Positions 5,562 to 61,018 of a stretch of 64,000 bases of DNA are shown in pieces; the first letter of the stretch is position 1; every line of letters begins with the position of its first letter. Origin of the DNA: Protoeuglena noctilucae (lineage: Eukaryota); NCBI GenBank assembly GCA_958009085.1, contig OY253668.1, positions 1,488,001 through 1,552,000 of the forward strand. Direction: 5' to 3'. Made by a program: the position numbers and the translations under genes. The notes under the pieces are model-generated. The model was not told the DNA's origin. It was given only the letters and a program-made list of their open reading frames with translations, and ran no database searches.

Positions 5562-6757
5562 TGAAGACACTGCAGCGGATTGATCGGGAGAGGGTCGTCG
5601 CAGACACGTGCGCGGAAGGGTGACGAGCGCGGCGAAGCGCGGAGCGGCGCGCACCGGATGAGGGGTGGAAGTGGTGCACCGGCGGAGCAGCGCTGTAAAG
5701 CATCGTTGCAGGATCTCTGACGTCTGCGAGCCGGCCGGGGGAGCGAGGGGCGTTGCGTGGCGCGCCGAGCGCATTTTCTAGGTGTCGAGAACGGCCGGCG
5801 GCGGCGGCGGCGGCGGGGGTGTCCGGTTGCATGGCAGCACGGACGTCCAGGGGAAGCATGCGATGGCGGCCCGGTCGAGGCGGCGAAAGGCCCCCCGCGA
5901 TGGCGCCATTGGGACATCAGGAAGGCAAGATCAATGCACAGCGGGCCCGCAAGGGCTTCCATGCTGTTCCTCCCTGAGGAATCCATGCCGTCCTCGCCAC
6001 AGGCCCACCCAGGCGGCGCTAACTCTCTTGCAAGGAAGCATGAAGGAGCGCACATGCCCGCGGCGTGGCGCTAGACAGTTAATCATCAAGAGCCGCCAAT
6101 GGGAGGCGATGGGATGGGTCATGTCCCAGCAATGGCCGCGACGGCGTGCCCGGGGGCCCCGGCAACCGTTCAGAATCGCAACCTCATGGCACCGACACAG
6201 CGACGACTCGCCCCAATGGGCGCCTCACCAAGGATAGGCTGCCCAGAGGTCACATTGGGGAACGGCGGTCCCGGAGGCCGAGAAGAGGGAGCCGCCATGC
6301 TGATCTAATGGATATATGACACGACGAGCATGAAAATGCGGGGACAGTGTGTTGGACGACGAGATCCGACCTCCCGGACCACGCCCCAGGGTCAAGCAGG
6401 GCAATGTAGGGAGTGGGGGACGCAGACGCGAAGAAGTGATCGCACACGAGGGCGAGGCCGCGAAACAGTTTTGGTGCGTTCTGACGGGAGGGCAAACCCA
6501 CCAGACTGGGCGAGCAGAAGCAGCACGCATCGAGCATGGCTGGCCCAGATTGCGCGGAACGCGACATCAGATTGCATGACTTCGTCTCGCACGACGCGGC
6601 TTCGTTGCTCCAAAGTGCCTTTCGAGCCAGTTTTCCTGTCCTGGCCATCCAGCTAGCTCTGTGACGGGCCGATAGTACAAGGACTGGCTCCTGGGGACGG
6701 AGGCGCTGGGCGAGGAGGTCACTACTCCCAGCGGGAGCGCAGGGCGTGGGGGGCACG

Positions 6758-8304
6758 ATGTCTGGGATAGGGACGGGGGTGAGATCCCGCCCGCGATGAA
6801 AATAACTCGGCTGTCATCAGGCACCCTCGCGCGTCAAGGCGCACTTGCGAGTCGCCAGGCACCCAGCTGGGGCTCGAAAGTCTTCACCGCGTGTGTCGTG
6901 CCTTTTCAGCGCAGCGAGCCCCCGCTTGGAAAAGGATAGGCGTCGCATAGCTAGCAAGCGCGACATGGATGCTATGATGCGCCGCTCGCCGCCCCTTTCG
7001 GCCCTGTGGTTTCGGGAGTTCGCGCGCAAGTGCTCCATGGCCTCCCTCGTCCACAGTACGACCTCTCCACGACGACCTACTCGCCGGACGGCAAGGTCTT
7101 TCAGATCGAATACGCGCAGAAGGCCGTGGACAACGCCGGGTGAGGCAGCGGGCACCGCGCCATGGTACGCTCTTCGCGTCCAGATCCCCGCCGGACGCCT
7201 CGAGATGCGCGCCCGCGGCCGCAGGACTGCCATCGGGCTGCGATGCCGCGACGGCGTGGTGGTCGCTTGCGAGCGCCTCGTGCAGAGCAAGATGCTGGTG
7301 GCCGGTTCGCAGCGTGCGGTGTACCCGGTGGACCTGCACGCGGGCTTGGTGGTGACGGGCCTCGCTCCGGACGGCCGACAGGTGCGAATCGACCGTTGGC
7401 CTGCATGGCGGGGCCGCATACCCCCCGGTCTGCTCGGCCGGCACCTCTCAGAACCTGACGGTGCTTTGCCGCAGATCGCCGACCGGGCGCAGGCCGAGTG
7501 CCGGCAGTGGAAGGAGTTTTACGGAAGCGAGATTTCGGGCAAGGTCCTCAGCGACCGGTTGGGGGCCTTCATGCACATTTACACCCTGGCGTGGTACTTG
7601 AGGCCTATCGGGGCCTCCTCGCTGCTCGCCGTGTACGGCAGGGACGGTCCTGAGGTGCGTGCGTTCACGGTCTCGTCATTCCCAACGCGGCTGCCCTTGT
7701 CAGCTCCTAACATAGGCCATGGGGGCGTGTGATGCCTGCTTGCGTGGCCCCGCGCAGCTTTACGTCGTGGAGCCTTCCGGGACGGCCTACCGCTTTTTCG
7801 GGGCGGTGGCCGGCAAGGGCAAGCAGGCGGCGAAGACCGAGATCGAGCGTCTCAACCTCAAGGAAATCACCTGCCGTGAGGCGGTCCGCGAGATTTGCAA
7901 GATCCTAAGGGGGCTGCGCGAGGAGGAGAAGGCGTACGAGATCGAGATGGGCTGGGTGTGCGACGAGACCAACCGGCGCTTCCAACGGGTACCCAAGGTG
8001 GGCAAATGGGCGGGCCTGAGGCGGAGGGGTGGGGCAATAAGGTGGGGCCCCGGGGTGGGCCGAGGAGGCTCAAAGTGGTCTTCCCAGAAGGGCCTGTCCC
8101 TGTGCTCCGGAACCTCTGTTTGCGGCACTAGGCCGGCCGAAGTGAGCAGGCTCAGCCCATGTGTTGGCACGTCGGACGGTCCAGCCATGTCGGGGCCATG
8201 ACGGTGCGGCTATGCAACGCAACATTCGGTGCTCCCAGGAGCTCGTAGACGAGGCAGATGCGGCGGCCAAGGCAGCCCTGGACTCGGACATGGAGGACGA
8301 TTGA
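6758..8304 (+). CDS. PSMA3: 20S proteasome subunit alpha type-3 (alpha7)
   Basis: Exons 6758-6778, 7057-7139, 7225-7381, 7475-7654, 7758-7997, 8239-8304: [67 protein letters not shown]. Confidence 0.95.
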
Positions 8305-8620: not shown

Positions 8621-11600
8621 ATGGCTCAGGCGAGGGCGTGCGCTTTTGAGATCCGGAACTCGCTTCGCGTGGGATATTTGCGTGTTCACCTGTCGAGGCG
8701 TGCGTGGCTGAGCCTGGTGCACCCGTTGCGCCGTCCCACCGGGTCAATATCTGGATCTGTTCCGGTGGTGTCGCCCTTGCGGCAGCGGGGGACGTCCCCC
8801 GGGGCTCGTGACGTGACCGCGCTCCCTGGCATCGAAGCCGACGTCCCGTGCGCCGCGATCGCCGCAGACATCGGCGCAGTGTCCACCCCAGGGCCAGGCC
8901 TGGGCAGCCCCACGGCCACGAGCTCCGCGCGGGTTCTCCTGCACCGGCCGAGCACCGACGCCGCGGTCCGCGTCGAAGATGATTCGGGACGTGCGGCAGC
9001 ATGCGGGCTCGAAGAATGCGGCGTTCGATTTCGGAGGCGTGAAGGACCTGCGCCCCGGGTCGACGATGGCCCCCAGTTACGGCAGCCCGCCGCCGAATCC
9101 GGACAAAGGGCGTCGCGCTGGCATCGTGCTGCACCCCACGTCACTTCCGGGGCCTTACGGAACGGGCGACATGGGCCCGGACGCCCTCAAGTTCGTCGAT
9201 TGGCTGGCCGCAGCGGGGATGCAAGCGTGGCAGGTGGGCGCAGCGCCCGGCCGACGCCGATCACGCCGGAGGCGTCGAGCCGGCCATCAATCAGTCGCGC
9301 ACTGACCGTCCCCCCCCGCCCGCTCCCTCCCCTGGCCAGGTGCTGCCCCTCGTACCCCCGGAGCGCCAGTACTGGTCGCCTTACTCTGGGGAGGACGGCC
9401 TGTGCGGCAACACCCTGCTGATCAACTTAGAGCTCCTGGTCAAGGACGGCCTCTTGGCTGGATCCGACCTGCCCCCGGTGCGGTGCCCGACTGCGGCAGC
9501 CTAACAGCTGGGACACGGTGCAGACAGCTGGCCGTGCCATCAGCCATCTTCGCAGAGCCTCACGCGCCCGTAAGTGACTCCGTGAAGTCACCGGGCCCAC
9601 TTGCGTATCCCCACCCCTGATGGCTCACAGGCATTGCCGGAAGAGGACGCGTCTGGGCGTGCACTGAAGTGCGACTTCGAGGCAGCGGCGAAGATCAAGG
9701 ACCCGCTGCTGGCCAAGGCGGCCCGGAAGCTTGTGGACGGCGTTAACAAGGCGATGGCCAAGGACATGGCCGCATGGCGGAAGGCCAACGCCTGGGTGGA
9801 GGACAGCGCTGTCTTCCATGCCATCAGCACACAGGTGGGCCAGCATGGGACGATGGAATACGCCGTACTTGCCGCGCCAGCCGCGGTGCGCACCCTCCTG
9901 CCAGCGTGCTTGCGCTGGCTGCATGATGCGATGCGTGTGCGCGCTGTGTTCGCAGGAGCCGGAGTGCATTGGAAAGGACTGGTGGGACTGGGAGCCTGGG
10001 CTGCGGGACCGGAAGCCCGAGACGATGACGGCCGTGAAGTGAGTCCCACGCTTGGTCGTCACAGACTTGTCCTTGACTGCTGGTGCAGGTCAGATGGGAC
10101 GCTGGTGGGTCGCACTGGTTGCATTGCTTGCACTAAAGCACTGGCTCGCATACCCTTGCAGGGAGAAGTACCGGGGGCTGATTGACGAGTTCGTTGCCAA
10201 GCAGTTCCTCTTCTACCGCCAGTGGGCGCGCATCCGCCAGTACGCCAACAGCAAGGGCATCAAGATTATCGGGGACATGCCCATCTACGGTGAGCGGATT
10301 AGTTACGAGAGAATTACGAAGCGTACTCAAACCTGTCCGATGCTCTTGTGGAGACCCGCTGCCTTCCAGCCAGCTTCACGGCACGTTTGCTCCGCCGCCC
10401 ACCTTCCCGCCCCCGCTCCCTTGCCATGTCACCCGCTGTGCCACCCCCCCCAGCTGATTGCTTGACCTTCCCTGTTCCCTCTCGCCTAACAGTGGGCGGC
10501 AACAGCGCCGACGTGTGGGCGTACGCGGACCTCTTCGAGCTTGGCCCAGACCGCAAGCCTCTGCTTGTCTCCGGGGTGCCCCCGGACGCGTTCAGCGAGA
10601 CGGGGCAGCTGTGGGGGAGCCCGCTGTACGACTGGCAGGCTCACGACAAGGACGGATACCGCTGGTGGGTGCGGAGGATGCGGCAGAGCCTAGAGGCGTG
10701 CGACGAGTTACGCGTCGACCACTTCCGGGGGTTCGCGGGGTACTGGGCCGTGGAGGCGACGCGGGAGACGGCGATGATTGGGGAGTGGAAGGCGGGGCCG
10801 GGCACGAGGTGAGGCGGGGCCAGCGCTGGCGTCGGTGTAGGAGCGCCGGCCGTTGCCCCGTGCTGTTCTGAAGTCGCGACCCAACAGCATGTTGGCTCCG
10901 CAGGCTGTTTGAGGCGCTCAGGAGAGAGGTCGGGGAGGTGCCCATCCTGGCTGAGGATCTAGGCGTGATTACCCCGGACGTGCATGAGCTGCGGAACGCG
11001 ATCGGGGCTCCGGGGATGGTCGTGCTGCAGTTCGCATGGGGGGGTGGCCCGACCAACACGCACCTCCCGCACAACCACTACGAGAACTGCTTCGCCTACC
11101 CCGGGACGCACGACAACGGTGAGTGGTGCTCAACATGGCGCTGCATGGGTTAGTGCAATTGGTCACCAGGGCCGCAGTTGACAATCCTGCCTTCCGTCGG
11201 CGCAGACACGACGGTAGGCTGGTGGAAGCGCATCCCAGAGGCGGAGCGGATCATGCTGCGGCGCTACCTGGGGACGTCCGGGGACGACATCGCCTGGGAG
11301 CTGACGCAGGCGTGCTTCGCGAGCGTGGCGCGCACCGCCATCGTGTGCATGCAGGACGTGATGCGACTGGACAACGAGGAGGGGCGCATGAACACCCCCG
11401 GTACCAAGGAGGTGCGTGAGGCTGGCGGGTGCCCGGCCGCACGTTGACTGACCCATCGATTGCGACGCATGCGTGTGTCGGACTGTCTGTTAGGACAGGG
11501 TTTGCAATGGAGCTGACTACAGTTGGGTTCTCGCAGAACAACTGGCGGTGGCGCATGGGGTCCCGGAAGGTGCTCGATCGGCTGGCTCCCGAGGCGCGTG

Positions 11601-17343: not shown

Positions 17344-19022
17344 ATGCATTTGGCCCAGAAGGGCTGTCCATTCGCCGGTGGGGGGTTCCGGAAGCACGTG
17401 GGGTGAGGATATCTGCAGGATTAGTTGACACAGAGGCTCTGGGATCCGGCCTCGACGCGGTGCGCCTCGATGAGGTGGATAGCGGCCAACCCTCGCCCCT
17501 CGCCCGCCGGCGCCGCAGATGCAGCTATTTCCGACAACCTGTGCGTAACTCTCGCGGAGTGGGCTTCTTGGTGGAGGCGAAGAAGGGCCTGGCGGAGGTG
17601 GGCAGAGCGGAATTTGCGGCTGCCTGTTCCGCGCCCCCGTCCGCGGTCGCTCACGCCGATATCTCCCTGCCTGCAGCTGCTGAAGGTGCGAGGGGCCCAG
17701 CAGGAGAAGGGTCGGCTCAAGCCGGGGAAGGTCGGGCCGCCGCGACCTGTGCCGGACTCCATTCCCCGGCCGCCCTACGCCGCGACGGGTGAGGGCCCCC
17801 AGCGCCGCCGCATTCGTCCGCGGCAGTGCGGCGCGATGCAATCTTTCATTTTGAATTACCACGCAAGCTCCCCGGCCACAGGCGAGAACCCCCCGTTTGG
17901 CAAGGACCCCGAGGTCCACGACGCAGCAGGCATCGTCAAGATGCGGGCGTCGGGGCGGCTCACGGCGTCGGTCTTGCGCCGCGCAGGGGAGCTGGTCAAG
18001 CCGGGCGTGACGACGGACGCGATCGATGCCGCCGTGCACGGGTGGATTGTGGAGGCCGGCGCGTACCCATCGCCGCTCAACTACGGGCGCTTTCCAAAGG
18101 TGAAGGCTCCCTGTCCCTGGAGACGCCGGCAGCGGCACGCATCCGCGCCGGTCACTTTCCCGTCATCCGCGACCCCCTTTGCGCTCCCGCAGTCCGTGTG
18201 CACGTCGGTGAACGAGTGCCTGTGCCACGGGATCCCCGACAGCCGGCCCCTCGAGGAGGGCGACATCATCAACATCGACGTGACCGTCTATCTGGACGGC
18301 TACCACGGCGACTGCTCGAACATGTTTGTCGTGGGGAAGTGCTCGGCGGACGCACAAAGGCTCATTGATGCAAACAGGCGAGTGCGACTCGGGGGAGGCA
18401 AAGCTTGCAGGGGGTGCACGGGGTTCGACGTGCGCGTTTGAGCGAGCCGTGCGTGCGCGGGACACTGCCGCTCATGGGGACGCTGCCGCCACCCCTGCAA
18501 CCGACGCAGGGAGGCTCTGGATGAGGCGATCGCCAAGTGCGGGCCGGGGGTGCCCTTCCGGGAGATTGGGGCCGTGATCGAGACGGTGGCTCGGCGGCAT
18601 AAGGTCAACGTGTGCAAGGACTTCATCGGCCATGGCGTGGGCAAGGTGAGATGTGGCGACAGACCATAGGCATGGGTAGTGTTTCACGCCATCTCACAGG
18701 GGTCAGGAGAGGTTGCGGGGTCGCATGCGTGTGGATCACGTAGCGGAGCGCATGGTCACGCTCCAACCGAGCCTATGCGCTCTCCGCGCAGGCCTTCCAC
18801 GCCCCGCCGGCCGTGCTGCCCCATCGCAACAGCGAGCCGGGCAAGATGCAGCTGGGCCAGACCTTCACGATCGAGCCCATCTTCGTCCTCGGTTCCCCCC
18901 GCTTCCGCATTTGGAACGACCAGTGGACCGCCGTCACGCTGGATGGCAGCTGGGCCGCCCAGCACGAGCACACGGTCCTCATCACCCCCGACGGCTGCGA
19001 AATCCTGACCAAGGAAGACTAG
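17344..19022 (+). CDS. MAP1: Organellar methionine aminopeptidase type 1 (MAP1B/MAP1D-like)
   Basis: VPDSIPRPPYA, GAYPSPLNYGRFPK|SVCTSVNECLCHGIPD, NIDVTVYLDGYHGD, FIGHGVG, TFTIEP, AAQHEHTVLIT; TAG 19020-19022; start tentative. Confidence 0.93.
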
Positions 19023-19529
19023 ATCGTCTTTCAAAAACGAAGCAAAGTCCTGAAGGCCAGTGCTGAGTAGCAGCCACGTGGGGTGATAGGGGTGGCGCGG
19101 CGAACGGGGTTCGGATGGGAAAATGCGTCGCATGTCTGTCAACGAGCTGCCGCTGGCTCACACGTCTCGAAGGCTCGAGACGATGTGAAGGAACGAGAAG
19201 AGTCCCAGTCCTGCAAAGATCCAATGACGGTGCCTCCCGCCTGGTGCTATGAGAGATCGTGCTTTGCCTGCGCTGGAGGGGTCAGCCACCCGCAGCACAT
19301 GTCGCTCAGCCGACGCTCGGGGCGCACAGCAGCCCCACGAGTCGGTCGACGTCCGCGGTGAGGTCCAACTCCTCCATGTCCACGTCGCACCGCTCCTCAA
19401 TCGCCTGGAGCCACGTGATCTCCGCGGGGGTGCCCTAGGGCCAAGTTGGGGTACGTCGAGGTTAACACAACACGCGAGCGGCACTGCTGCAATCCTGCCG
19501 CTCCTCCGCATCCCCATCATGGACATGTT

Positions 19530-22500
19530 TCAGGTCCGTCTTAGGGGCTCCCCAAGCTCTCCTCGTAAGATCATGAATTGCTTTGCAAAGCCCTTTGCGC
19601 CGCGGCTCACCCCGGACAGGGTGACGATGCACCCCCGGTCCTGCACGAGCGCCGTGCGCTTGGCGTAGCTGTCGGGGGAAGGCACGTTGAAGTGCACCTC
19701 GACGGCCACGTTGGTCGCGTGCGTCTCCAGGAGTTGCGGGGCGTAGCCGACCCATGCGACTAGGACGGACGTCTTGCCCGCCGCCACGTGGGCGGGGATC
19801 CGGGCCCGGCCGTCCGTCGCGGCGCCTGGCTCCGCCACCATGTGCACGCCCCGGTACCCGCCCTTCCTGCGGATGCAATCGAACGCGGCGAGGGACATGT
19901 CACGACGTGCGCCATGGGCATAAGTGACACAGGGGCCATGGCATTGAGCGCCCGCCGGGTGTGACGCCCTGGCAAGCCCCACAAAGGGTCGGATTTCCCC
20001 GGACTGATGAGAACACGCACCTGAGGGCGTCGGCAACGCGCCCGGCCACATCCTTCATCTTGCACAGCACCAGCGTGGGTCGCGTGGCGTGCGTCTCCGG
20101 GTCTGCCGCCATCTTTAGGATGGACCGGAGCGCCTCGAGGCGCGCGGGCTCCTCCCCGGCCACGCGCAGCACGACGTGCGTTAGCCCCCGGCCGCAGCCG
20201 AGCTCAGGGAAGGACTGGCCGCGAGGCATGCCAAAGCCGACTTCCGAGCGCGGGATGCACGCCCCGGGGGACGAACCCAGGGGGCTCGGCGCCTCGTGAG
20301 ACGGCTCGGCGTGGGCCCCGTGCCTGGCGCCGTTGCCGTCCGCGGGCGCGGCGGGCAGCGTCCGCGGCAGCGACTGCGCTTGGGAGCACTGCCGCAGCCG
20401 CGACCCCACTGCGCCCGCCCCTGGCGAGGTCGCGGCGGCATCCGCGGGGTCCCACTCCACCACCAGACGCGCGGCATCCGCAGTGCCGGGTGGCGAGGGC
20501 TGCAGAGTCCCCAGGTCACCCAGCGCGGTGCTGTGAGCGGTGCGGACCACGGCTGGCTCCGACGGCCCCTCGACCGCACTCTCGCCCCGCGGGGCGAACG
20601 CCGAGAGGACCGCGCTGCGGACGCGCTGCAGCAGCCCCGTGTGCACGCTCGCCGCGCTCCCCTCCACCCCCGGCATCCCGCTCGCCCCCTCCTCCCGGTC
20701 CCCGAGACTCGTGGGGGTGACCCTGGCCGGCTTGCCCTCTTCCTCTGAGGACGACGAGTCGTGCACGATGCCCGCCGCGTCCACGGTCGCGTTGAAGTGC
20801 TCGAAGTTGAGGCGGACGCTCGTGGTCGGGTTAAGGCCCGGGGCGCCCGGGGAAAGGGACCTCCAGGCCAGGGTGACCACGTGGGCGAACTGGTGGCCGA
20901 AGCGGATAGACGACGGGCCGAACGACTTGCGCGCCTGGATGCTCCTGGACGTCGCCGGGTCGACGCCGTCCTGCGGGTGAGGAGGGATTGCACGTGAGCT
21001 CTTACTGTGCATGCGGCAGGAGGGGCGTCGACAGCCTCGTGCCCCGCTTCGCCGGCTCGCAGCTGCGCTCCTCACCAGAATTACCATCACCTCCAAGCCC
21101 ATCCTGGCGATGTCGTCCCTGTCGAGCCCGAACAGCGGGCTGCTCTCATCGATGACATGCGTCTGCAGGCACGCATACACAGCGTCAGGCATCACCAGGC
21201 TCGCTATGGATGGAAAGGCCCGCTCCCAGCCCCTCGCCACCGCCCGACACGCACCAGCGTCGCAGGCAGCCCCAGCGTCAGGTACAGGAGGCTCTCCTGC
21301 GTGTTCTCCACGGCCAGCATCTGCACGCCCACGTGTGGCGCCGCCGACCCCGCGTCACTGCGTCCGCGCGTCATCTGCGGCGCAGGTGGGGTCGAGAGCT
21401 GCATTCCCAGCCTAACAATGCTGCCCTGCCGGGCGCGGGCAGAGGCGGTGGGTCAGGGCCCTCACCGCCGTGTCCCGGAGCAGCGGGCCTCCTCCGTCCC
21501 GCGCGTCCTCGTCCACGTCCATCACGCCCGACAGGGCAGCCCTCCGGGCCAGGTCCCGCCGCTCTCGCTGCAGGTCCTCCACCAAGAGCGACGTGACGAG
21601 CTGCGTGGGGCGGCGGGCGCGTCCGCATCCGCACGGGCGTCGCGGCGAGCGCAAATCGACGCGTAGCCATGCCTCATCGCCCCCTGCGCAAGTCACCATT
21701 CGGATCTGTGGGTTGAGGATGCCGTGCGCTTTGAGGTTGGCCACGCGGCAGGACAGGCACATGCGGCCGCCCGACGCGTGCATGGTGAGGCTGCTGGAGA
21801 ACTTGATCGTCTGCGAGCGGTGCATGGGCGACGAGAAGCGGGCGAACACGACGCCCATCATGCTCGTGTTGATGAGGACAGCCGTGATGGCCTGGATCGT
21901 CACGGCGAGGTTGATAAAGAAGCAGTCGGGGTTCGGGGACATCTCCCCTCCGTACCCTGCGACGGCACCCACGAGGCGACGCGATGGGAAGAGGCTGCGG
22001 GGGCCGTGCGTTCGGAGGAATCGCCCTGCAAGGTGCCTCACCGATCGTTGCGGCCGACTGCACCGAGAACCACACCGCGTGGTCGAAGGATTGAATGCCC
22101 ATGATGCAGTCATCGGCTTGAAGGTAATAGATGACGGCGAAGCTGACGTAGAGGAGACTGCAGGCGAAACCACCAAGGACGGGCCAGCTGTCTCGGTTGC
22201 GCTCCGGCGCGTCGCGGCAGGGGGAAACGCCGGACTCCAGGGCCACACGAGGGTCATGAAATCGAAGACGAGCAAGGTGGGCCCCGGGAAAGCCCGAGAG
22301 GACCGCAGGAGCAGCGCACGAGACCCCGAACAGAGCCACGTCTGCAGGCTGCACGCACGTGTAGCTGCTGAAGAAGAAGACCATGAACTTCCACAAGGGC
22401 ATGTCAAGGAGGCTCTGGAACACGTCTGAGAAGGCGACGTCCCACAGAGACAGCCCCGTGCGCTTGATATTGAGCTTGAACGGGAGGCGCCGGTGGAGGA

Positions 22501-22552
22501 TTTTCGAGTAGCTGCTCGCCGGCAGCAGCGGCTCCCGCGCCCCCGCCGGCAT
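19530..22552 (-). CDS. Inward-rectifier potassium channel (Kir/IRK) with long C-terminal extension ending in a helicase-C-like domain
   Basis: SDVFQSLLDMPLW slide helix, M1, pore AVWFSVQSAATIG|YG, M2 GVVFARFSSP, IKFS, CLSCRVAN, HVIDESSPLFG, DGVDPATSRSIQARKS, VRLNFEHF. N-terminus may extend further upstream. Confidence 0.9.
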
Positions 22553-22699
22553 GGCGATCCCGAGCGCAGCGCAAGGCGCCGGCCCGGGCTCCCGGATGCC
22601 CCCCGAGGACGCAGCTCGGGTGTCTCGGGGAGTGGCTTGACCCCACCAGCGACCCCGGTACTCGCAGGATGTGCAGGCAGCCAATCACACGTGTATCTT

Positions 22700-23530
22700 T
22701 GCGCGGATTCCCGTGGCGGCCCGCGAGGAAGCCGACTCTGGGGTGTCAGAACGCGGCCGCGCTGGTGCAATGACAGGAAGCGCGGCGACCAGGGCGGTCG
22801 AGTTGACGAGACCACGGCGGTAGCTCCGGGCATCCTTGGAGACACGCAGACCCCGCGGAGTTCAAACTCACACAACGTCGCCCGCGTTTTCGGCTGAAGC
22901 TGACCCAGTGGGCATGGTGCCCTGACGCTGGCCCCTACGCCGCTCATGGAAGGGGCTTTGGATGTCCTTCCCGGCGGGGCGGGGCGCGCGCTCATGGCCG
23001 CGAGCGCCAAGCGCGTGGCCGGGGTGGGCCCTGCCCTGTTCGCTCTCATCTTCATAGGGTGAGCTGCGCGCACCACGCGCTTCACCTGCTTGATGACGTG
23101 GTCCACAGACCATGCTGCGGATGGGCCAGGCTCCAGATAGCCTCTGCCAGCCGTAGCCGGACGGGAGAAGAGATGCGCACGGGCGCAGGTCCTCACACCT
23201 CGTCCTCGTCTCCTCGCAGGTCCTTTTGTATGCTCCTCGTCGTCATCGGAGTACGCTCGCCCATCCCAATGTGAGCTGCCTCATGCAGGCTGACCGGTGC
23301 CACCCTCACGCGCCCCACCGGTGCTGAACGGTATGCCGCTTGTGCTTCGACACCCACAGAGCCTTCATCGCCCCCGCCATCGTCATCTTCGGCGTCGCCG
23401 CGGCCATCATCTTCACTGCGCCTCGCGGCACCGTCAAGAGCGACTACGGGACGTCGACGCAGCTGGTCGCGGCCGGCTCCGTCCTGACCGTCATGGGTGT
23501 GTGACAAGCGGCGGGGCCCCGCGACTCCTG
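22700..23530 (-). CDS. Possible low-complexity upstream exons (Kir N-terminus or a small separate gene)
   Basis: Acidic open frame ..RSEDDGRGDAEDDDGGGDEG..LRGDEDE followed by a GT donor near 23198; I could not resolve its splicing. Confidence 0.3.
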
Positions 23531-23771
23531 CGCTTGCCGATCACGCCGCGACATTCTCCCACGGAGCTGCGCGTGTTCATAATCAATCCACCCTCCCCCT
23601 GCAGGGCTCTTCAGCCTCCTGGCCCTCGTCATGCTCATGATCCACTCGTGTATCACCAAGGTCGAGGCCCGCGCCCTCAATTACCGACGGGACGTCCTCA
23701 AGCCAATCTAATGAATGCTCTAATCGTGACTTGGGGTACTAGGGAGGGCCACAAAGGGACATGTCGCCACG

Positions 23772-24732
23772 TTAGGGTGTGAAGGTGGCCCCGATGGGTG
23801 AGTTGGGCTCGGTCGTGTCCACGGAAGCGTCGCCAGATCCCCGTTTCATGACGCCGCCCCGCACCCCGAGACTCTGCGAGAACGCTTGAGTTGCATCCAG
23901 ATGTGACAAGCCCAGTGCCCTTGGCGTCAGCCCCGGCGCCGCCCCACGGCACAGCGGGCTTCGCATCACGCATGCGCACCTTTTGCCGGGTCATGGGCGG
24001 CTCCTTAGTCAGGCTGTTGGTCCTCCTCCATCGTGTGCCGCACGCGTTGCAGAGAACGGGCTTTTCGGGGGGACCTCTCCTCCACTGGGGCGACTTGGTG
24101 ACCTCACAGTTGTCGCACGGGCCGCCGGGGCGCATGGAGGACGTGGGCATCTGCGGGCGGGGTGCCTTCCCTACTCAGGTCGCGCCCGCAGGCGCACACC
24201 GACGCGCTCACTCGGGCCACTTGCGGGTGCCGCTGGCGCTCACCAGCGGCTTGGGATGCACCACGAATGGCCCGTGGCTCCTGAGATGGATGGCCGGCGT
24301 GGATGGGAGCCAAGATTCCTTGGCTCTTGCCGACAAGAGCCGGCTGAGCTCCGTCACGTCGTCCTCGGTTGCAGGTATCAGTTGCCCAGTCGTCGGGCAC
24401 CGCACATGCAGCACGTAGTCCACCTTGGTCCGCCCCAGGTAACGCCCCGCGTCGGTCGCGTCCCTTTCTGCGACCCAGAGAGGCCACGACGGGCGTCGCG
24501 CAGTGCTCGCGGCGCACCCTCACGAGCATCCGCTGAGCCCAGGCATCCCACCGTTCTCCTGGCCCGTCCCCTCGCCAGAGCCGTTGGACACGGTGCACTC
24601 GCTCAGTGGCGGGGTGCCCCCCCGCGAGAACGACATGGTGTACGGGGCCAAGGAAGCCAGGCCGGGCGTGGTTGGATTGCCAGGATCCGCTCCTGTGGAA
24701 GAGTCGATGACCTGCTTGCAAGGGGGTTCCAT
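23772..24732 (-). CDS. GATA zinc-finger transcription factor (GATA26/27-type finger)
   Basis: [34 protein letters not shown] is C-X2-C-X18-C-X2-C; start tentative. Confidence 0.85.
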
Positions 24733-25329: not shown

Positions 25330-26311
25330 TCAGTTGAAGGGCTCGACGGCCAGCTTCTTACCCCTCAGGTCGCGCATCAAGTTCGCCATCCCGATGGCTG
25401 CGGCGGATGAGAGCGGCGGCGGTGATTGTGATGACAAGAGCGCCTTGGTGCGCATGCACAGCGTCCCTGCGCGATCGGCGGCCTTCTTACCCGTGACCCC
25501 TGCCTCGAAACCCTTGTTCCCGACCTTGCCCCCGGCGCGGTCCTGGGCTTGCTCCATCGTCTCTGTCGTGATGACGCCGAAGATGGTCGGGACCCCCGTG
25601 GAAGCGCCGACGCCCTGGATGCCGGACGTGGCCGCCGAGCACACCTCGTCGTAATGAGTCGTCGCACCGCGCACCACGGCGCCGATGCACACGATGGCGT
25701 CATACTGCGCGGGGAGGGCGCACGACACCCGGTTCGCTTCGCCAGCAGGCGATGGCCGACGCGCCATGCAGCCGCGTCGACACAGAGACGTGGTGCTCGC
25801 ACCTTGCCCGTCTTGGCCATGCACTTGGCCACCACGGGCAGCTCGAAGGAACCCGGCACCCACGCGACCTCCACGTCTTGGCGCACATTGCAGCCGTGGC
25901 GGTCGAACGCTGCGGGCGTGTTCCGGGCAGGCGCCCTAACGACGAGGCCACGCGCGTGCGGCATCGCAGCCGCTGCCTGCGCCTCGGAGCTCTCACCAGA
26001 AAGGCATCCGTCCAGGAGGCGGTCCGTCACGAGGTCATTGAAGCGCCCGACCACGACCCCAAACTTGAGACCCTCTGCCCGGAGGCTGCCAACGTGCATA
26101 CTGACCTGGATGTAGTCGATTGCGACGACGTAATGTTGCAAGAACAAAGCGGCAAAGCTCAGCCAACGCAGGGCCGCGCAGGCATTCAGCACCGGCCCGG
26201 CACCTCATCCCTCAGCGCACGGGCCGCTTGGAGTCGGCCGCGGTGCAGCCCCGACGACCTCTTCCCGACCAGAGACACGGCGCTCCTAGAGCATGGCAAA
26301 GCGGCAGCCAT
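25330..26311 (-). CDS. ribH: Plastid 6,7-dimethyl-8-ribityllumazine synthase
   Basis: Transit [10 protein letters not shown].. then [66 protein letters not shown]. Confidence 0.95.
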
Positions 26312-26718: not shown

Positions 26719-27444
26719 ATGAGGGCAATTGCGCTGGGAGGACCGTCGCTGGCCCCGTGCCGGCGATGTCGCTTGTCCGCGACTGTGATGGTATGCTCGA
26801 AGGGCTTTGGGAAGGAGGATGCGCCGGTTCCTAGTGGACCGGCCTTAAACAAGCGCGGCAAGGTGTCCAGCAGGCCAGGGATTCCTCCTCGGGAAATGAT
26901 GGGGGCCCAGGAGGTGCCGGTGGCGCAGGAGGCGATGGGACAGGAGGAGGAGGAGAGGACGGAGCTGCCGCAGGTAAGGGCCTATGGACGACGCTCAAAT
27001 CAAAAATGCGGGGCCTGATGCATGCCAGAACGCCAGCAGCCGAGCAATGCTGGGCTTCCCGCGTCTCTCTGCAGGTCGTGGGGGACCGCATGCTGCGCCG
27101 CATGGCTATCTTCGCGGGCATCCCCTTCGCCGGCTCTCTCCTCTTCTTCCCCGCGTTCTATTACGTCAAGGTGACGGTCCTGCCTGCCCCGCACCATCGC
27201 TTTGCTGAGCTACCAAAGGCAGAGCGCACGGTTGCCCGGTCTCGTGCAGGTGGTGCTGGGCGTGGACGTGCCAAGCTTCGTCGTCTACGCCATCTCGGTC
27301 GCGGGGCTCGGCGGCTCCCTCCTGGGCATCAGCTACGGGGTGCTGTCCACCTCATGGGACCCACGGCGTGAGGGGACGTTCCTCGGCGCCGCAGAGTTTC
27401 GTTCAAACCTCCCTGCGCTGATGCAGAGGCTGGGGCGCAAGTGA
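26719..27444 (+). CDS. PAM68: PAM68 thylakoid photosystem II assembly factor
   Basis: Three exons: transit..KGFG..ELPQ|VVGDRMLRRMAIFAGIP..|..GISYGVLSTSWDPRREGTFLG. Confidence 0.9.
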
Positions 27445-32370: not shown

Positions 32371-34849
32371 ATGTCCTCGCTGACCCACTGGACGGTGGAG
32401 GTGAGCAGCAGGCCGACTGTCACGGTGGTCTTTTTATCGTATAGACGACGGCGCAGCGCGCGGAACCCTCTCCCCGCGGGGTGTGTTGCCCTGGGCCGCG
32501 GCCCCTCCCTGCCTCTCCGACCCGCCTGCTCCTCGGGCCTGTGCCGCAGGAGGACGAGAAGCTCCGTCAACTCGTGGCCCAGCTCGGACCTAAGCGCTGG
32601 TCGGACATCGCGAAGGAGCTGGGCAGCAAGGGGCCCAAACAGGTGCGTCCCCGCTCGAGTGCGAGGGAGGGGCGGCCGCAGCTCCCCGTTGCGCAGCGCA
32701 GCGAGTATCCAGGACCTGATGCGCCTGTGGTGTTTGTTCCTCGCATCGTCCGGGGGCCAGTGTCGTCCCATGGCACCCTCGAAGGGGCGGTTCCTATGGC
32801 AGCTCCCGCGCTTTCCCGGGACTCTCATTTGCGCCAGGCCGCCGTCTCCTCGTCCCCCGTGTTCACGAGGAGCCGTGCGCGTGTCCCGGCCGCGCATATA
32901 GGCGAAGTCCCCGTCGCATGCAGTGTCGACGTCGATGGAAGAACTACCTTGACGCGGAGCTCAAGCAGGGCGCCTGGACCGAGGAGGAGGACAGGAAGCT
33001 GTTGGAAGCGCACGATACGCTGGGGAACAAGTGGACGGACATCGCCAAGGTCGTGGGCGGGAGGACGGACAATGCGGTGAAGAACCGCTTTGCGGCGCTC
33101 CAGAAGCGTATCAAGGCGTCGGGAGGCTCGCGCCGCAAGCGGCCACGCTACACCCAGGACGGCTCGATCCTCGGGCTCAACGTCGAGACCGCGCCTGTCG
33201 GCATGGGCTTCCCTAGCACGTCCGGAGGCATGGGCACGCTGGCTAGCCCCGTGGGGATGGCCCTGAGCTCCGGCATGATGCCCCCATCCCACAAGGAGCG
33301 TGCGACGCTGCGATTGAGCCCTTGCGGCGTGCGGAATCGCAAGCGGATTGCGCGGGAGCCGCTGCTGCCAGGTCAAGACCGGCCGCCTCCCCGCCCACCC
33401 GCCGCAGGCCAGCCTGCAGATCCCTGGCCTGAGCATGCCGTCGCCCGTCCTGACGCCGACGGGCACGACCGGCCTCACGCCGCTCGGGAACTCCCTCTTC
33501 CCGAGCCTGACCACGACCATGACGATGGGCTTCGGCGCCAGCACGAGCCTCCCCATGCCTACGATGAACAGCCCCCTGGGCCTCGGGTCGGAAGGGGGCC
33601 TCAGCTCCAGCCGGTCCCTCGGCCTCTCCGTGGCGATCCCCAACGACCCTTCCGCCCCGCCCATGGCCGGTGAGGCGACGCGCGCGGCTGGCCCTCTGAA
33701 TGTCGTCGGTCGCATCTGCGCTGCCCCTCGCGTGCACGCGGCCGGAGAGCCAGTTCGTGGATTCAGAGGGTGTGACCTGCTCCGCCGCCCGCGGCCCCTC
33801 GCGCAGGCGACACCAGCCAGCTGGGGGTCGTGACGGCGCACGTGACGCGCGAGAGCCTCACCGCGGCCGAGCTGAGCCTGATCCCGGACATCAACGCGTC
33901 CACGCCGTTCAATATCCTCGTGGAGGACCAGCCCATCACGATGCAGCGGGCAGACGAGCTGTCCCGCCAGTACTCTGCCCGGGGCAATGGGCGACTGGTG
34001 AGCGCAGCGGGCGTGTCGCTGCTCGGCGGGCCCCGACTGCGCCAGGGCGCGGCGTAGTGCGCTGCATCTGGGAGTTGGCTGCCCACATGACATGTGGCGT
34101 GCGTCTCGTGCCGCAGGCAGACGTGCAGGATGTGCTGGCCTGGTTCTCCACACCGCGCGCGGGGGCCAGGGCGAGCGTGGACGCAAACGACGCGTCGACG
34201 TCGGCACCTGGGAACGGCTCCGACCTCGTCCCTATGAAGCAGGAGCACAGGTGTGGGTCCCCGCGTATTGCATACCCCGGCAGCATGCCGCGGGGGTCCT
34301 GTTAGGGAGGTTCCGGCGTGCGCTGACATGCGCTGCGATTCTTTTGGCCGTCGCAGAAGCGTGCTGGCGCGGGTGGTGCAGATCTCGCAGCACCAGCGGG
34401 AGGTCGCGCGGCAGGCGCAAGCGACCAAAGAGCGCGCGAGGCAGGAGGCCGCCGCCGCCGCCCAGCGGGCGCTGTCTGAGGCGAGGGAGAGCCTACGGGC
34501 GCAGGGAGGGGGGCAGGGAGGGGCACAAGTGGGGAAAGGGGCGGAGCCGGGGGCGGGCGACGGGGGGGGTGGGCAGGGGGGTGCACCAGACCCGGGGGTG
34601 TCGGGGGCGGCGGCAGCGGGGGACATGGGGAACGGGGCGGACGCCGCGCAGAGCTTCGACCTCAGCCGGGGGCTCTTCGAGGACGACAGCCTGCAGCTGA
34701 GCGGGGTGCTGCCGTCGCTGGACGACGAGGAGATGCGGCTGCTGAGCCGCGTGCTGCAGGACACCTCGGTGCCGCTCGGGACGCCCGGGTCGTTACCATC
34801 CTTCAACATCTTCCGCAGCCCGCGGAGGAAGAGCCGGCATCGGCGCTGA
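32371..34849 (+). CDS. R2R3-MYB transcription factor (FOUR LIPS/MYB88-like)
   Basis: MSSLTHWTVE|EDEKLRQLV..WSDIA..KQ|CRRRWKNYL..WTEEED..GNKWTDIAKVVGGRTDNAVKNRF; TGA at 34849. Confidence 0.88.
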
Positions 34850-43701: not shown

Positions 43702-45204
43702 ATGGATTCTGGACGTCGCGGTGCCCGCAGCAAGGACCGGGAGGCGACGGTGGGGGCATGCCCTGACCATCACGTGCCAAAGCCCTCGTGGCTAGGGCCC
43801 AGGTTCCGCAACCCATGGCCCACGTTTAGGTTCCCGACGTTCTCCGACATGCGGAAGCTGTTTTCGTCCAACGGCGACAGCCCAGACGCGCCACGCAAGA
43901 CGGTGCTGTCGCGCATGGTCACGGATACCAACGGGGCGTGGCTGCTGAACAACGCGCGGCCGACACTACGGGACATCGCCGCGCGTTTCCCGGTCGTCTC
44001 GTCGCCGGACTTCGACGCTCTGGCGAATCCCCCCCAGGACGCCGTCCAGGCCATGTGGGTCGGGCACGCGACCTGCCTGGTGCAGATGGAGGGTGCCACG
44101 TTCATCACAGACCCGGTCTTCTCCGAGCGCGCCTCCCCCGTGCGATGGGCCGGGCCCAAGCGCCTCGTGCCGGTCCCCTTCGAGATCGAGGACCCCCGCG
44201 TCCCAGACATCGACTTCGTTCTCCTCTCGCACGCGCATTACGGCGAGTCGGCCGCCATGTGACATGACAATGTCAAAGCTTTGTTATTACAAGTGACTGT
44301 TCCAACTGCTACCCTTTGTGTATGTTCAGACCACCTGGACGTGGGCAGCGTGCAGCGCATCCACGCCCGCTGGGGTGACGACGTGCGGTGGTACGTGCCG
44401 CTCGGCCTGCGCCCGTGGTTCAAGGCGCGCGGCGTCTCCAACGTCGTCGAGATGGACTGGTGGGAGGAGGTCAAGGACCCGAAGACGGGTCTGACAGTCA
44501 TCATGACCCCGGCACAGCACTGGAGCAATCGGTACGGGTTCTTCGACTTCAACTGGTGGCTGTGGGGCGGCTTCGCTGTGCGTGGGGAGCGCCTGCGTTT
44601 CTGGTTCGCTGGGGATACGGGGTACTGCGAGGTCTTTGAGGAAATTGGGCAGCGGCTGGGGCCTTTCGACTTGGCGGCCGTTCCCATCGGAGCGTACGGT
44701 GAGCCCTTGGGGTGGGCTTGGTGGGAAGAGAGGGAGCACGGAGGTGCTGGAGGCGAGACTGATGATCCTGAAGTCTGTCGTGCACGCAGACCCGCGCTGG
44801 TTCATGCGCAGCCAGCACTGCGACCCCGGGGAGGCGGTGCTGATTCACAGGGACGTGCGGGCACGGATGAGCATCCCGATCCACTGGGGCACGTTCGGTG
44901 AGTGCGGCAGAGCACGTCTGCACTTGCGCCGTGCGTGGGGCCACTTGCTGGTCAAACAAAGGCAAGGGCTCTGCAAGACCCCCACAACCAGAAGAGCTTT
45001 CGTTCTCGCGCAGTTCTGACGACGGAGGCGCTAGACGAGCCGCCCCTCAAGCTGGAGGAGGCATGCCGGGAGTACGGGGTCGACCAGCGCACTTTCCGGC
45101 CACTCCAACACGGGGAGCTCGTCAAGGTGGCGCAGAAGGAGCCGGGGGCATTCGATGCCGTGCGCAAAATGGCTGCGGCCGCGACGGGCGCCTTTGCGGG
45201 GTAG
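43702..45204 (+). CDS. NAPEPLD: N-acyl-phosphatidylethanolamine-hydrolysing phospholipase D (metallo-beta-lactamase fold)
   Basis: [59 protein letters not shown]. Confidence 0.92.
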
Positions 45205-53514: not shown

Positions 53515-55464
53515 CTAGCAAGCCGCCTCTGCCACACGTGACGAGTGCGCGTCCAGCATCGCCTCCATCAGCGCCTCGTCCGTGTCGTCCAGCACCTGCG
53601 GCAGAGCTACCGCGCCGCCGTCGCAGTCCGCCGCCTCCAACTCGCTATCGCCCGCCGCGGTGCGCCCCGTCGAGCCCAGCCGGGCCAGTCGTTCGTCCGT
53701 GGGCCAGTCGGCCTGCTCGGCCTCGACCTCATTGCTGGCGATTCCGGACGCCCACCGCCGGCTGAAGGGAGCCCGGGGAAGGGGCGCCGGGGCGCCAGGC
53801 GCGGCCGGGTCGTGGGCGCGGTTGGACAAGGAGCGCAGCGGCATGGGCGGCAGGCGAGCGCCCCCTGCAGGTGCGGCCGGCCTCGCCCTGGGCCGGTCCT
53901 CGGGGAGCGCCGACCGCGGTGCGGGCGCGGCGTCCGCGGGGACGACCGTCGGCAGTCGCAGCTGCGCGTCGACCTCTCGCATACGCTTGAGCACTGCGCG
54001 GCGCAGGGCCGGGTTGAGGTCCCGCGTAAGCCCCGCCACGTCGCCGAAAGCCACGTTCGCGACACGGGCGTCCCGGTACAGCAGCACCGCCAGCCGGCCC
54101 CCTGCGCGCCGCAACTTGTCGTCCTGGTGCACCAGGCCGTCCCGAGCGATGGCCAGCGCGCCGTCGCGCACGGCGTCTGCAAGGGGCCCTTGCTCGTCGG
54201 AAGAATGCTGCCGCACGAGCGCCGCGATGGCCTCCAGTCGCCCGGTCTGCGCATCGGGGCCGAGGCGAGGTCAGCTCAGGTACACCGCTGCTCGAAAGTC
54301 GCAGTGGCAGGCGTGGCATTCGGCCGGGGCTCTCACCAGTTGCGCCGCGGAGAGTTTGCCTTTGCCTTTGTGGTCGAGGAGCTGCTGCAGGACGTAGTCG
54401 CAGCCGAGGCCGCGGCCGAGCGCGCAGAGGGCGGCAATGGTGTCGCCCCTGACACGCGCGCTGATGTTGCCAGCACGCGCGACCAGCGCGGGCGTGATGC
54501 GCCGGAGGTCGTCGCGCGCCGTGTCTTCTCCGACGATGCGGCAGCAGCGGCCCACGGCCGTTTGCAGCGCGGAAAGCGAGGCGAGGAACACCGGCGTCAG
54601 CTTGTCCCGGACCATCTCGTCCAAAACGACGACCGCCGACGCCCACTGCGCCCCGAGGTCCTCCTCTGGGCACGACTTCATCTCCTGCTCGAGCTTCTCG
54701 AGGGCAGACACTCGCGCAACCCAGTCGTCTTGGGGCGCAGGGGCGTCATCGGGGGAGTTGCTGTGGGGGGCAAGGAGGCAGGTGCTGCTGTCGGCGCGGC
54801 ACACGATTCGGACCGTTTCAGGCCTGATGAAATGCTTGTCAACTAACCTGGTCCTTTTCACCGCCCATCGCTCCTCTGGCGCCCCTTCCGCGAGGGTCAG
54901 CACCTCGTCCCGGCTAGGGGGTGTCGCGCCGCCCTCCCTCGCGAGCGGAGGCGATGCAGCCGGCTGGACCGCTGATGTGGGTCTCGGAGCCTCGGTTCGG
55001 GAAGAGGGACGCTTCGCCGCCGCGCTGGAGGCCGGTCGCGCGACAGCCTGCGGGCCCACATGTGACGCACAACTTTACGACCAGCGCGGGGTCGTGGACA
55101 GCCGATGATACGTCGTGCAGCCTCATATACAGCAATTTTACAGGCCGCGCTTAAGAAGAGAACGTTTGCGAGCACGCGACGGTGGGCTAAAGATGGGCGC
55201 TGACAATGAGAAAATGTCAATGACAATTGAGGCTCCTCCGTCCCCCACCTGCGCAGTCTTCGCACTCTGCTGCCCGTCCGCAAGAGCCTCCGTGTTGCAC
55301 GAGGTCACGAAGCCGGCGACGCTCCCTCCAGGAGTCGGGGAGCGATTGGTAACCTCGCTCCCCGACTCTTTCGCAAGCTTGCCCGCGGATGGCGACCGCG
55401 CTACCGGCTGAGCGTCATCGTCGCCGGCGTGCACGACGACCTTTGCGCTAGCACAGTTTCCCAT
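53515..55464 (-). CDS. TOG/HEAT-domain protein (CEP104/CLASP-like) with N-terminal MGNC acylation motif
   Basis: MGNCASAK start; DDWVARVSALEKL..VRDKLTPVFLASL..PALVARAGNISARVR..GLVHQDDKLRRAG. Confidence 0.7.
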
Positions 55465-59861: not shown

Positions 59862-61018
59862 ATGGCTGAGACCGTAAGGCCAAGCAAGCCACTGGACGTG
59901 TCTGGGGCGTCACGGGATGCGTGGTTGATCAAGGTGGGGCACGCGAAGCACAACCAAAGCAAGCGGCGCATTTGTGCGGATGTCGCGACCGATTCGCCGG
60001 TGGTTCCGCCACGCAGGTCCCTCATCAGTTGGGGAAGAAGCTCCAGGCCGTCTGCGAGCGGTCAGCGCAGGGTCACCGCGCACAGGTGGGGCGAACAACC
60101 GGGCTGCCTTGTGATGCGTCTCGCCACGCTTTCCTGGACGTGTCGCAGCAAAACTGGGCCTCTCTCGTGTGCAGGGTGACCTTATAGGTGCCGTCATTGT
60201 CCAAGAGGGCCAGAACAAAGGCCCGGCTCGTGCCGTACTTCGGTTTTCAGGGCTGGACGGGGTTTCCGAGGAATGGGAGGTGGGTGGGCGCCAGGTCTTC
60301 CTCGCTTACCGCCTCACTCTTCCATCCACGTCGCTGCACGCGCGATCAGCCAGGGCCCAGGGAAGCTCTGGCTGACTGGGTCCCCACCCGCTCCGTGGGC
60401 TCTGGGCCACCTGTGCATGCCACCGCGTCCACGCAGACGGTGCCTGATGCCGGGGGCCCCTCGCTGTACGTGATGACGGAGACCGACAAGGGGCTGGGGG
60501 TGTCGGGGCGGGTGGCGCAGAAGGTCATGCTGCGTCCCCGGAAGCGTGCAGCGGATGCCGCGAGCGAGAGCGCGGCCAGGCCCGTAGCGCAGCGACCGAA
60601 GACGGAAGCGGCGGCGCCGATGCTGCACATGGGCTCCCTGGACGAGGGGCCGACGGTCACCAACACGCACATCTTTGCCCAGCGTGGCTGGTACGAGAGG
60701 CACAAGCAGGCGATGGCCGAGGCGATGGAGGAGAAGGAGCAGGCGCAGAAGCTGGATCGGCCGGCCCTGGAGCGCGCCGTGTTCGCGGCATTCACGCGGC
60801 AGCGCTTTTGGAAGATGGTCCAGCTCTCGTCGTACCTCAAGCAGCCCGTGAACGAGGTGCGCGATCGCCGGCTGTCGCGGATGCGGTGTCGCGCCTGGGT
60901 GCGGCTCTCCCATCGCCCGTCTCCGCGCCCGCAGGTCCTTCGAGAGGTGGCGGTCAGGCACACGGTGGGGCCGCACGCGGGGGAGTGGGAGCTGAAACCG
61001 GAGTTCCGCGCTCGATGA
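59862..61018 (+). CDS. GTF2F2: General transcription factor IIF subunit beta (RAP30)
   Basis: LDVSGASRDAWLIK|VP N-terminus; C-terminal winged helix LDRPALERAVFAAF..W..KQP..LREVA..GPHAGEWELKPEF. Confidence 0.88.

Follow-up and report, generated by a model that had tools for sequence, protein, structure and literature searches.

Kir and KirBac potassium channels are built from two transmembrane (TM) helices around a pore helix, carry a T-x-G-Y-G selectivity filter (T-I-G-Y-G in the protein described here), and continue into a cytoplasmic IRK_C domain. Their known regulation is by lipids, G proteins, and nucleotides acting on the cytoplasmic domain and by separate SUR subunits; in K-ATP channels (Kir6.x with SUR), the Kir pore is governed by separate nucleotide-binding-fold domains. 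In DEAD-box helicases, the ATP site lies mainly in the RecA1 domain, and the RecA2 domain of the eIF4A-type enzymes is the usual docking surface for cofactors. Utp25p, a component of the small subunit (SSU) processome, is reported to be a pseudohelicase (PMC9539457). Here we report a gene on the minus strand of a 64,000-nucleotide stretch of Protoeuglena noctilucae DNA (assembly GCA_958009085.1, contig OY253668.1, positions 1,488,001 to 1,552,000; hereafter the window) that encodes a 748-residue protein consisting of a Kir channel (residues ~1-379), a low-complexity linker (185 residues), and a tail (~184 residues) that very probably descends from a DEAD-box RecA2 domain.

The channel part has the common Kir and KirBac layout and differs from it in a lineage-specific insert within the cytoplasmic domain and in the linker and extra domain, which add ~370 residues after IRK_C. 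The tail shares co-linear profile similarity and conserved structural positions with the RecA2 domains of eIF4A, DbpA, SrmB, and RhlE; unlike those helicases, the protein has no RecA1 domain, its motifs V and VI are replaced, it scores below the Pfam threshold, and it is attached to a membrane channel. The Utp25/Def pseudohelicases offer a parallel, a helicase-derived domain that has lost its catalytic motifs and serves as a structural part, and Utp25_C is among the structure-atlas matches described below; Utp25, however, keeps both RecA-like halves and acts in ribosome assembly, whereas here a single half appears to be fused to a channel. Among solved chains, Kir6.1 matches the Kir part best, but the likeness to K-ATP channels is one of layout only, as the regulatory domains there are active ABC-type ATP-binding domains on a separate polypeptide and here a probably inactive helicase half is carried in cis. 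Full-text literature searches found no described Kir channel with a helicase-like domain, and the passages of PMC3694395 returned by the search for algal and Kir-like channels concern plant KCO3 only.

The channel gene has nine exons (Table 1), with the ATG at 22552-22550, an in-frame stop upstream of it, and the stop codon at 19308-19306. RNA contigs from four metatranscriptome runs of one study (X8, X9, X11, and X12), the single source of splice-site support, were compared with positions 18900-22900, and exons joined by script at the RNA-defined joints give a frame that is open over 748 codons. All eight introns are GT..AG on the minus strand; the X8 contigs contain all eight joints, the X11 contigs six of eight, and the X9 and X12 contigs none of the eight. 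Both tail junctions lie together on single contigs of X8 (2,249 nt) and X11 (2,063 nt), which include the last 365 and 233 bases of exon 7, respectively. The contigs are identical to the window except for one A>G at 20870, where a single X11 contig of depth 3.5 carries the G, probably a strain difference. Contigs of X9 cross introns or sit inside them (19930-20113, 20851-21231, and 22179-22354), and one X12 contig begins 11 bases within intron 7; because of these intron-containing contigs, X9 and X12 may contain unspliced RNA or DNA, and the linker cover they give is therefore weak evidence of a mature transcript.

An earlier note on this DNA, made by eye from the letters, had read a Kir channel fused to a degenerate helicase C-terminal domain here. 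The peptide stretches it quoted are present on the minus strand in the frames it gave, and the phase 2 intron it placed at 19867-20020 is GT..AG and is removed in the contigs of two of the four runs, X8 and X11. Its gene end at 19530 has to be moved: the position falls inside the intron at 19435-19610, the stop there is not used because the X8 and X11 contigs remove that intron, and the frame runs on for 42 residues (19434-19309). These last residues are also kept in the protein of a related alga, P0003, described next.

Exon 8 was compared with 1,835,955,588 representative proteins, resulting in three matches at E<=0.001: the window's own unspliced open reading frame (ORF), a 106-residue fragment (P0002, 57% identity), and a protein of 579 residues (P0003) with 39% identity at its residues 446-528. 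The DNA encoding P0003 was located on three metagenome contigs, L006-L008. On L007, positions 5825-7615 form a single stop-free exon of 596 codons that encodes the pore, TM2, the cytoplasmic domain, a shorter linker, the tail, and a stop codon. By tblastn, window residues 1-64, 66-104, 104-379, and 557-748 align with positions 5295-5498, 5677-5793, 5966-6844, and 7001-7591 of the relative's locus at 59%, 62%, 55%, and 35% identity, respectively, the last with an E-value of 7e-26. The joining of Kir channel and tail proposed in the earlier note is thus seen as a continuous frame over RNA-defined splice sites in the window and, in the relative, within one stop-free exon; since the relative has the same pore-to-tail layout in one uninterrupted exon, the fusion is real and conserved. 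The relative's orthologue (L006/L007, 5295-7615) has only two introns and none in its tail; the two follow residues 64 and 103-104 and correspond in position to the first two of the eight in the window gene. The remaining six, both tail introns among them, were either acquired by one lineage or lost by the other.

The linker and the tail differ in their conservation. Alanine, glycine, proline, and serine make up 95 of the 185 linker residues, and the linker cannot be aligned with the relative's shorter one. Two strains of the relative differ at six codons, four of them nonsynonymous and located at P0003 residues 270-384, one in a lineage-specific insert, three in the linker, and none of the four in the tail; the third contig carries one more change, a synonymous one in the tail. 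These differences are small in number, and their direction is the one expected if the tail is constrained and the linker is free. The tail is conserved (35%) in at least two algae while the linker varies, which argues that the tail has a function. It is a rare sequence, carried by three sequence clusters among the 1.84 billion representatives. The tail region of P0003 as a query matched only itself, and its Kir region matched only P0004, a 402-residue fragment without a visible tail. A first metagenome scan with exon 8 gave 507 pattern matches, none of which was confirmed, a second returned only three contigs, all of the P0003 organism, and a word-indexed protein search with the exon 8 ORF found no longer proteins.

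Judged by its sequence, the channel part belongs to the Kir family, with a two-helix pore and an IRK_C cytoplasmic domain. In the spliced translation, the T-I-G-Y-G filter is assembled across the junction of exons 2 and 3 and lies between two hydrophobic helices. Pfam IRK_C matches the window ORF at 19903-21354 (E 2.5e-8, 34.2 bits) and P0003 (E 8.4e-23, 81.3 bits, cut-off 22.5); Pfam IRK on P0003 stays under its cut-off of 22.7 (E 0.011, 16 bits). Solved Kir chains matched P0003 in 59 cases at E<=0.01, the best being Kir6.1 (3.5e-20), and residues 30-119 of P0003 align with Kir6.1 residues 141-229. A charged insert in the cytoplasmic domain (exons 4-5, 21255-21600) is partly conserved between the two algae, and the corresponding residues 120-186 of P0003 are unmatched among the solved Kir chains.

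The origin of the tail was examined with a RecA2 profile made from the aligned sequences of five Escherichia coli K-12 DEAD-box proteins (RhlE, DeaD, RhlB, SrmB, and DbpA). Against this profile, the score is 16.2 bits for the window tail after splicing (E 3.5e-7 at Z=1) and 11.9 bits for the P0003 tail, and both tails are co-linear with the profile from the motif IV strand onward; tail part A of the window aligns from profile position 24. None of 10,000 shuffles of either tail reached the real score (maxima 9.9 bits for the window and 11.1 bits for P0003), and the best of 410 window ORFs of at least 100 residues scored 6.5 bits. The 35% identity to the relative's locus and a score above all 10,000 shuffles likewise bear out the claim that the tail goes beyond chance. 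In the reverse direction, a profile was built from the three tails and run on 490 six-frame ORFs of the five E. coli regions; the four best were, in order, SrmB, RhlE, DbpA, and DeaD (E 0.008 to 0.34), and in each the alignment fell on the RecA2 part. With hhalign, the tail alignment matched the RecA2 alignment at 89.7% probability (E 1.9e-6, 88 columns, 27% identity); compared with the 490 ORFs singly, it placed SrmB, RhlE, and DbpA at ranks 1-3 and DeaD at rank 7.

Two further searches were not aimed at helicases. Among the named clusters of the ESM Atlas, P0003 residues 390-579 gave eIF4A / Helicase_C on top with a score of 0.90, and 23 of 30 matches belonged to the Helicase_C / eIF4A set; further matches were to Utp25_C, a pseudohelicase family, and to bacterial Helicase_C clusters. 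Among 18,950 NCBIfam models, a single family matched at E<=10, DbpA (E 0.1), with the match at positions 224-298 of its 460-position profile, where RecA2 begins. Beginning at the motif IV strand and ending where motif VI starts, the alignments stay co-linear for ~90 to 100 residues. Several convergent lines (the RecA2 profile, hhalign, the reverse searches, the ESM Atlas, and NCBIfam DbpA) thus favor the helicase C-terminal origin proposed in the earlier note, although each line by itself either stays under its threshold or was a targeted test.

A number of results weigh against this origin. The fifth E. coli protein, RhlB, was ranked 146th of 490 in the reverse search, and an Atlas score of 0.90 was attained by 4 to 10 of every 100 shuffled proteins. 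Pfam Helicase_C, the check that the earlier note had proposed, gave no match at E<=10 on the window exons, on P0003, or on L007 7001-7612, and the single tail exons gave nothing useful in Pfam at the same threshold. A tail profile from alignment A2, which leaves out window pieces A and C (misplaced by MAFFT in A1), was searched against all solved structures and had six matches at E<=10, no helicase among them; exon 8 by phmmer against the PDB had one unrelated match (E 0.12), and in the ESM Atlas it matched carboxypeptidase-regulatory-like clusters at 0.82-0.86, under the level at which matches were counted. An AlphaFold2 model of the relative's tail from a 3-row alignment, kept free of DEAD-box rows to avoid circularity, has strands and helices alternating in the expected order and a mean predicted local distance difference test (pLDDT) score of 35.7, too poor for comparison; Foldseek with this model found nothing at E<=0.001 and only assorted alpha/beta folds, and because of the low pLDDT the Foldseek result is uninformative and the RecA fold is not established. 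The targeted tests were prompted by the earlier visual match, and multiplying the E-values of the RecA2 profile by the size of Pfam (24,736 models) gives ~0.01 for the window tail and ~0.2 for P0003. Taking all lines together, descent of the tail from the C-terminal RecA2 domain of a DEAD-box (eIF4A-like) helicase is very probable.

Part of the RecA2 pattern is kept in the tail and part is lost. The three tails (window, P0003, and P0002) share the glycines after the second and third helices, a V-x-V-A strand, the arginine at the Q-x-x-R position, and the P and Y..R around motif VI, and these invariant columns fall on positions that are structurally conserved in DEAD-box RecA2 domains. Exon 8 holds the most conserved stretch of the tail family together with the positions of motifs V and VI. 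Motif V in DEAD-box proteins reads T/S-D-x-x-A-R-G-x-D and motif VI H-R-x-G-R-x-G-R, as is visible in the E. coli alignment. In all three tails motif V and most of motif VI are replaced, only the arginine following the H of motif VI being retained, and the stretch now found there hardly varies across the tail family. A RecA1 profile (with the ATP-binding motifs I and II, the latter D-E-A-D) of the same five E. coli proteins scores 2.4 bits on the 748-residue protein, and this match sits on the tail, with nothing in the linker. The erosion of motifs V and VI described in the earlier note is therefore present at the aligned positions, and it is accompanied by the lack of a RecA1 domain. With RecA1 missing and with replacements in motifs V and VI, the RecA2 motifs that contact ATP and RNA, the tail is predicted to be unable to hydrolyze ATP or unwind RNA, and the protein would carry one inactive half of a helicase core. 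With three defining features of a DEAD-box helicase lacking, the tail is not such a helicase as an enzyme, and descent from one is the most probable relationship.

We consider it unlikely that the tail is instead a lineage-specific alpha/beta domain unrelated to helicases, with a resemblance produced by generic strand-helix convergence and composition. Such a domain would fit the missing Pfam Helicase_C match, the absence of helicases among the six PDB profile matches, the unusable fold model with its many different alpha/beta folds in Foldseek, and the fact that the positive scores are all under database-wide significance or from targeted tests. It does not readily account for four method-independent searches (profiles, hhalign, Atlas, and NCBIfam) that indicate DEAD-box proteins and nothing else, with a co-linear alignment over ~90 to 100 residues in every case. 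Other P-loop and SF1/SF2 helicases in the 490-ORF set (DinG, Rep, and a UvrB fragment) do not rank alongside the DEAD-box proteins: in hhalign the Rep ORF is at rank 8, aligned on its N-terminal part, and DinG and the UvrB fragment are outside the top 12. Somewhat less likely again is a ligand sensor that gates the pore through nucleotide or RNA binding retained by the tail, as suggested in the earlier note. In its favor, all three tails have the arginine of the Q-x-x-R position, and the K-ATP channels are a precedent for Kir pores ruled by nucleotide-binding domains, but the domain that holds most of the DEAD-box ATP site, RecA1, is absent here and the motif V and VI positions are replaced.

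The RNA evidence bears on whether the tail is made mainly, or also, as a separate small protein from an internal start in exon 7, which we regard as very unlikely. Methionine codons are present in the linker shortly ahead of the tail, the listed X8 contigs break in the linker (20385-20406 and 20699-20702), and the tail contig has a mean depth of 22.3 compared with ~7 for the Kir contigs. Contig depth, however, cannot rank the parts of a gene, and the deep contig extends into the convergent neighboring gene, so that neither the X8 gaps nor the difference in depth is evidence either way. The whole linker is covered by other contigs of the RNA libraries without an internal joint, and two species with unalignable linkers of unequal length both have an open frame from Kir channel to tail. 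The transcript linking pore exons and tail that the earlier note had called for was recovered in part: the eight joints and the open frame are in place, and no single listed contig spans both a Kir junction and a tail junction, which counts against the fused reading. We retain, as the probable and best explanation of the whole, a Kir subunit with a flexible linker and a folded, catalytically dead tail derived from RecA2.

The window has a GC (guanine plus cytosine) content of 67% and is eukaryotic DNA with genes typical of a green alga; the stretch is present in marine metagenome and metatranscriptome runs. No DEAD-box gene was found in it, either among the 410 ORFs (best 6.5 bits) or in Pfam scans of 244 ORFs. 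A methionine aminopeptidase gene at 17425-19022 on the plus strand (Pfam Peptidase_M24, E 3.3e-22) is convergent with the channel gene, and the stop codons of the two are ~290 nt apart. X8 and X11 contigs extend from the tail exons of the channel gene beyond 18900 into the aminopeptidase gene; these shared contigs reflect either overlapping 3' untranslated regions or transcripts merged by the assembler. Other predicted genes are listed in Table 1.

Table 1. Exons and introns of the channel gene, with the parts of the protein they encode, and other predicted genes of the window.
Feature	Position	Strand	Basis
Exon 1, N-terminus and start of TM1, residues 1-64	22359..22552	-	RNA joint 22157/22359, frame
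Intron 1	22158..22358	-	RNA contigs
Exon 2, TM1 and pore helix to first part of selectivity filter	22042..22157	-	RNA joints, translation
Intron 2	21957..22041	-	RNA contigs
Exon 3, remaining selectivity filter, TM2, start of cytoplasmic domain	21697..21956	-	RNA joints, translation
Intron 3	21601..21696	-	RNA contigs
Exon 4, lineage-specific insert in cytoplasmic domain	21466..21600	-	RNA joints; P0003 120-186 unmatched by Kir chains
Intron 4	21375..21465	-	RNA contigs
Exon 5, cytoplasmic domain	21255..21374	-	RNA joints, translation
Intron 5	21163..21254	-	RNA contigs
Exon 6, IRK_C core	21076..21162	-	RNA joints, Pfam IRK_C
Intron 6	20971..21075	-	RNA contigs
Exon 7 first part, end of Kir cytoplasmic domain (~residue 379)	20746..20970	-	Pfam IRK_C, tblastn
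Exon 7 middle, linker, residues 380-564 (185 residues)	20191..20745	-	Composition; no internal splice joint
Exon 7 end, tail part A: first strand, first helix, motif IV-equivalent strand	20021..20190	-	Translation, profile alignment
Intron 7, 154 nt, phase 2, GT..AG	19867..20020	-	Removed in X8 and X11 contigs
Exon 8, tail part B, 85 complete codons	19611..19866	-	RNA joints, translation
Intron 8, 176 nt, phase 0, GT..AG	19435..19610	-	Removed in X8 and X11 contigs
Exon 9 coding part, tail part C, 42 residues, C-terminal helices, and stop codon	19306..19434	-	RNA joints; conserved in P0003 / L006 to 7591
Proteasome subunit	6806..8198		Pfam on raw ORFs
GH77 4-alpha-glucanotransferase (disproportionating enzyme)	8817..10809		Pfam on raw ORFs
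GATA factor	23701..24174		Pfam on raw ORFs
Lumazine synthase	25333..26204		Pfam on raw ORFs
PAM68-like DUF3464	26835..27368		Pfam on raw ORFs
Myb factor	32445..33670		Pfam on raw ORFs
Metallo-beta-lactamase fold	44263..44898		Pfam on raw ORFs
CEP104-like TOG	54274..55074		Pfam on raw ORFs
TFIIF beta	60188..61015		Pfam on raw ORFs

Because Kir channels are tetramers, each channel would carry four of the RecA2-derived tails on long tethers under its cytoplasmic pore. RecA2 is a cofactor surface in eIF4A-type helicases and Kir gating runs through the cytoplasmic domain, and for these reasons we tentatively suggest, at somewhat less than even odds, that the tail is a docking or regulatory module. 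Its binding partner may be another protein or the cytoplasmic domain of the channel itself, and such binding could control the gating, assembly, or localization of the channel. A merely structural or clustering role takes up most of the remaining probability. More speculatively, and with little likelihood, the four dead RecA2 domains may form a gating sensor that binds RNA or a helicase cofactor such as a MIF4G-type protein from the machinery of translation or mRNA decay.

Kir channels are among the best-studied ion channels, and a Kir channel combined with a helicase half was not found described. If the tails do act as such sensors, they would couple membrane potassium conductance to the state of RNA or translation and bring a new class of regulation to Kir channels, in which a domain fused in cis would do what SUR does for Kir6 in K-ATP channels. 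The protein may equally be a lineage-restricted scaffold of only local interest. With its probable descent from RecA2, the tail would show that nature has put half of a helicase to new, non-enzymatic use as a module, and the channel may offer a compact model in which to study how a Kir pore can be controlled by a cytoplasmic domain added to it.

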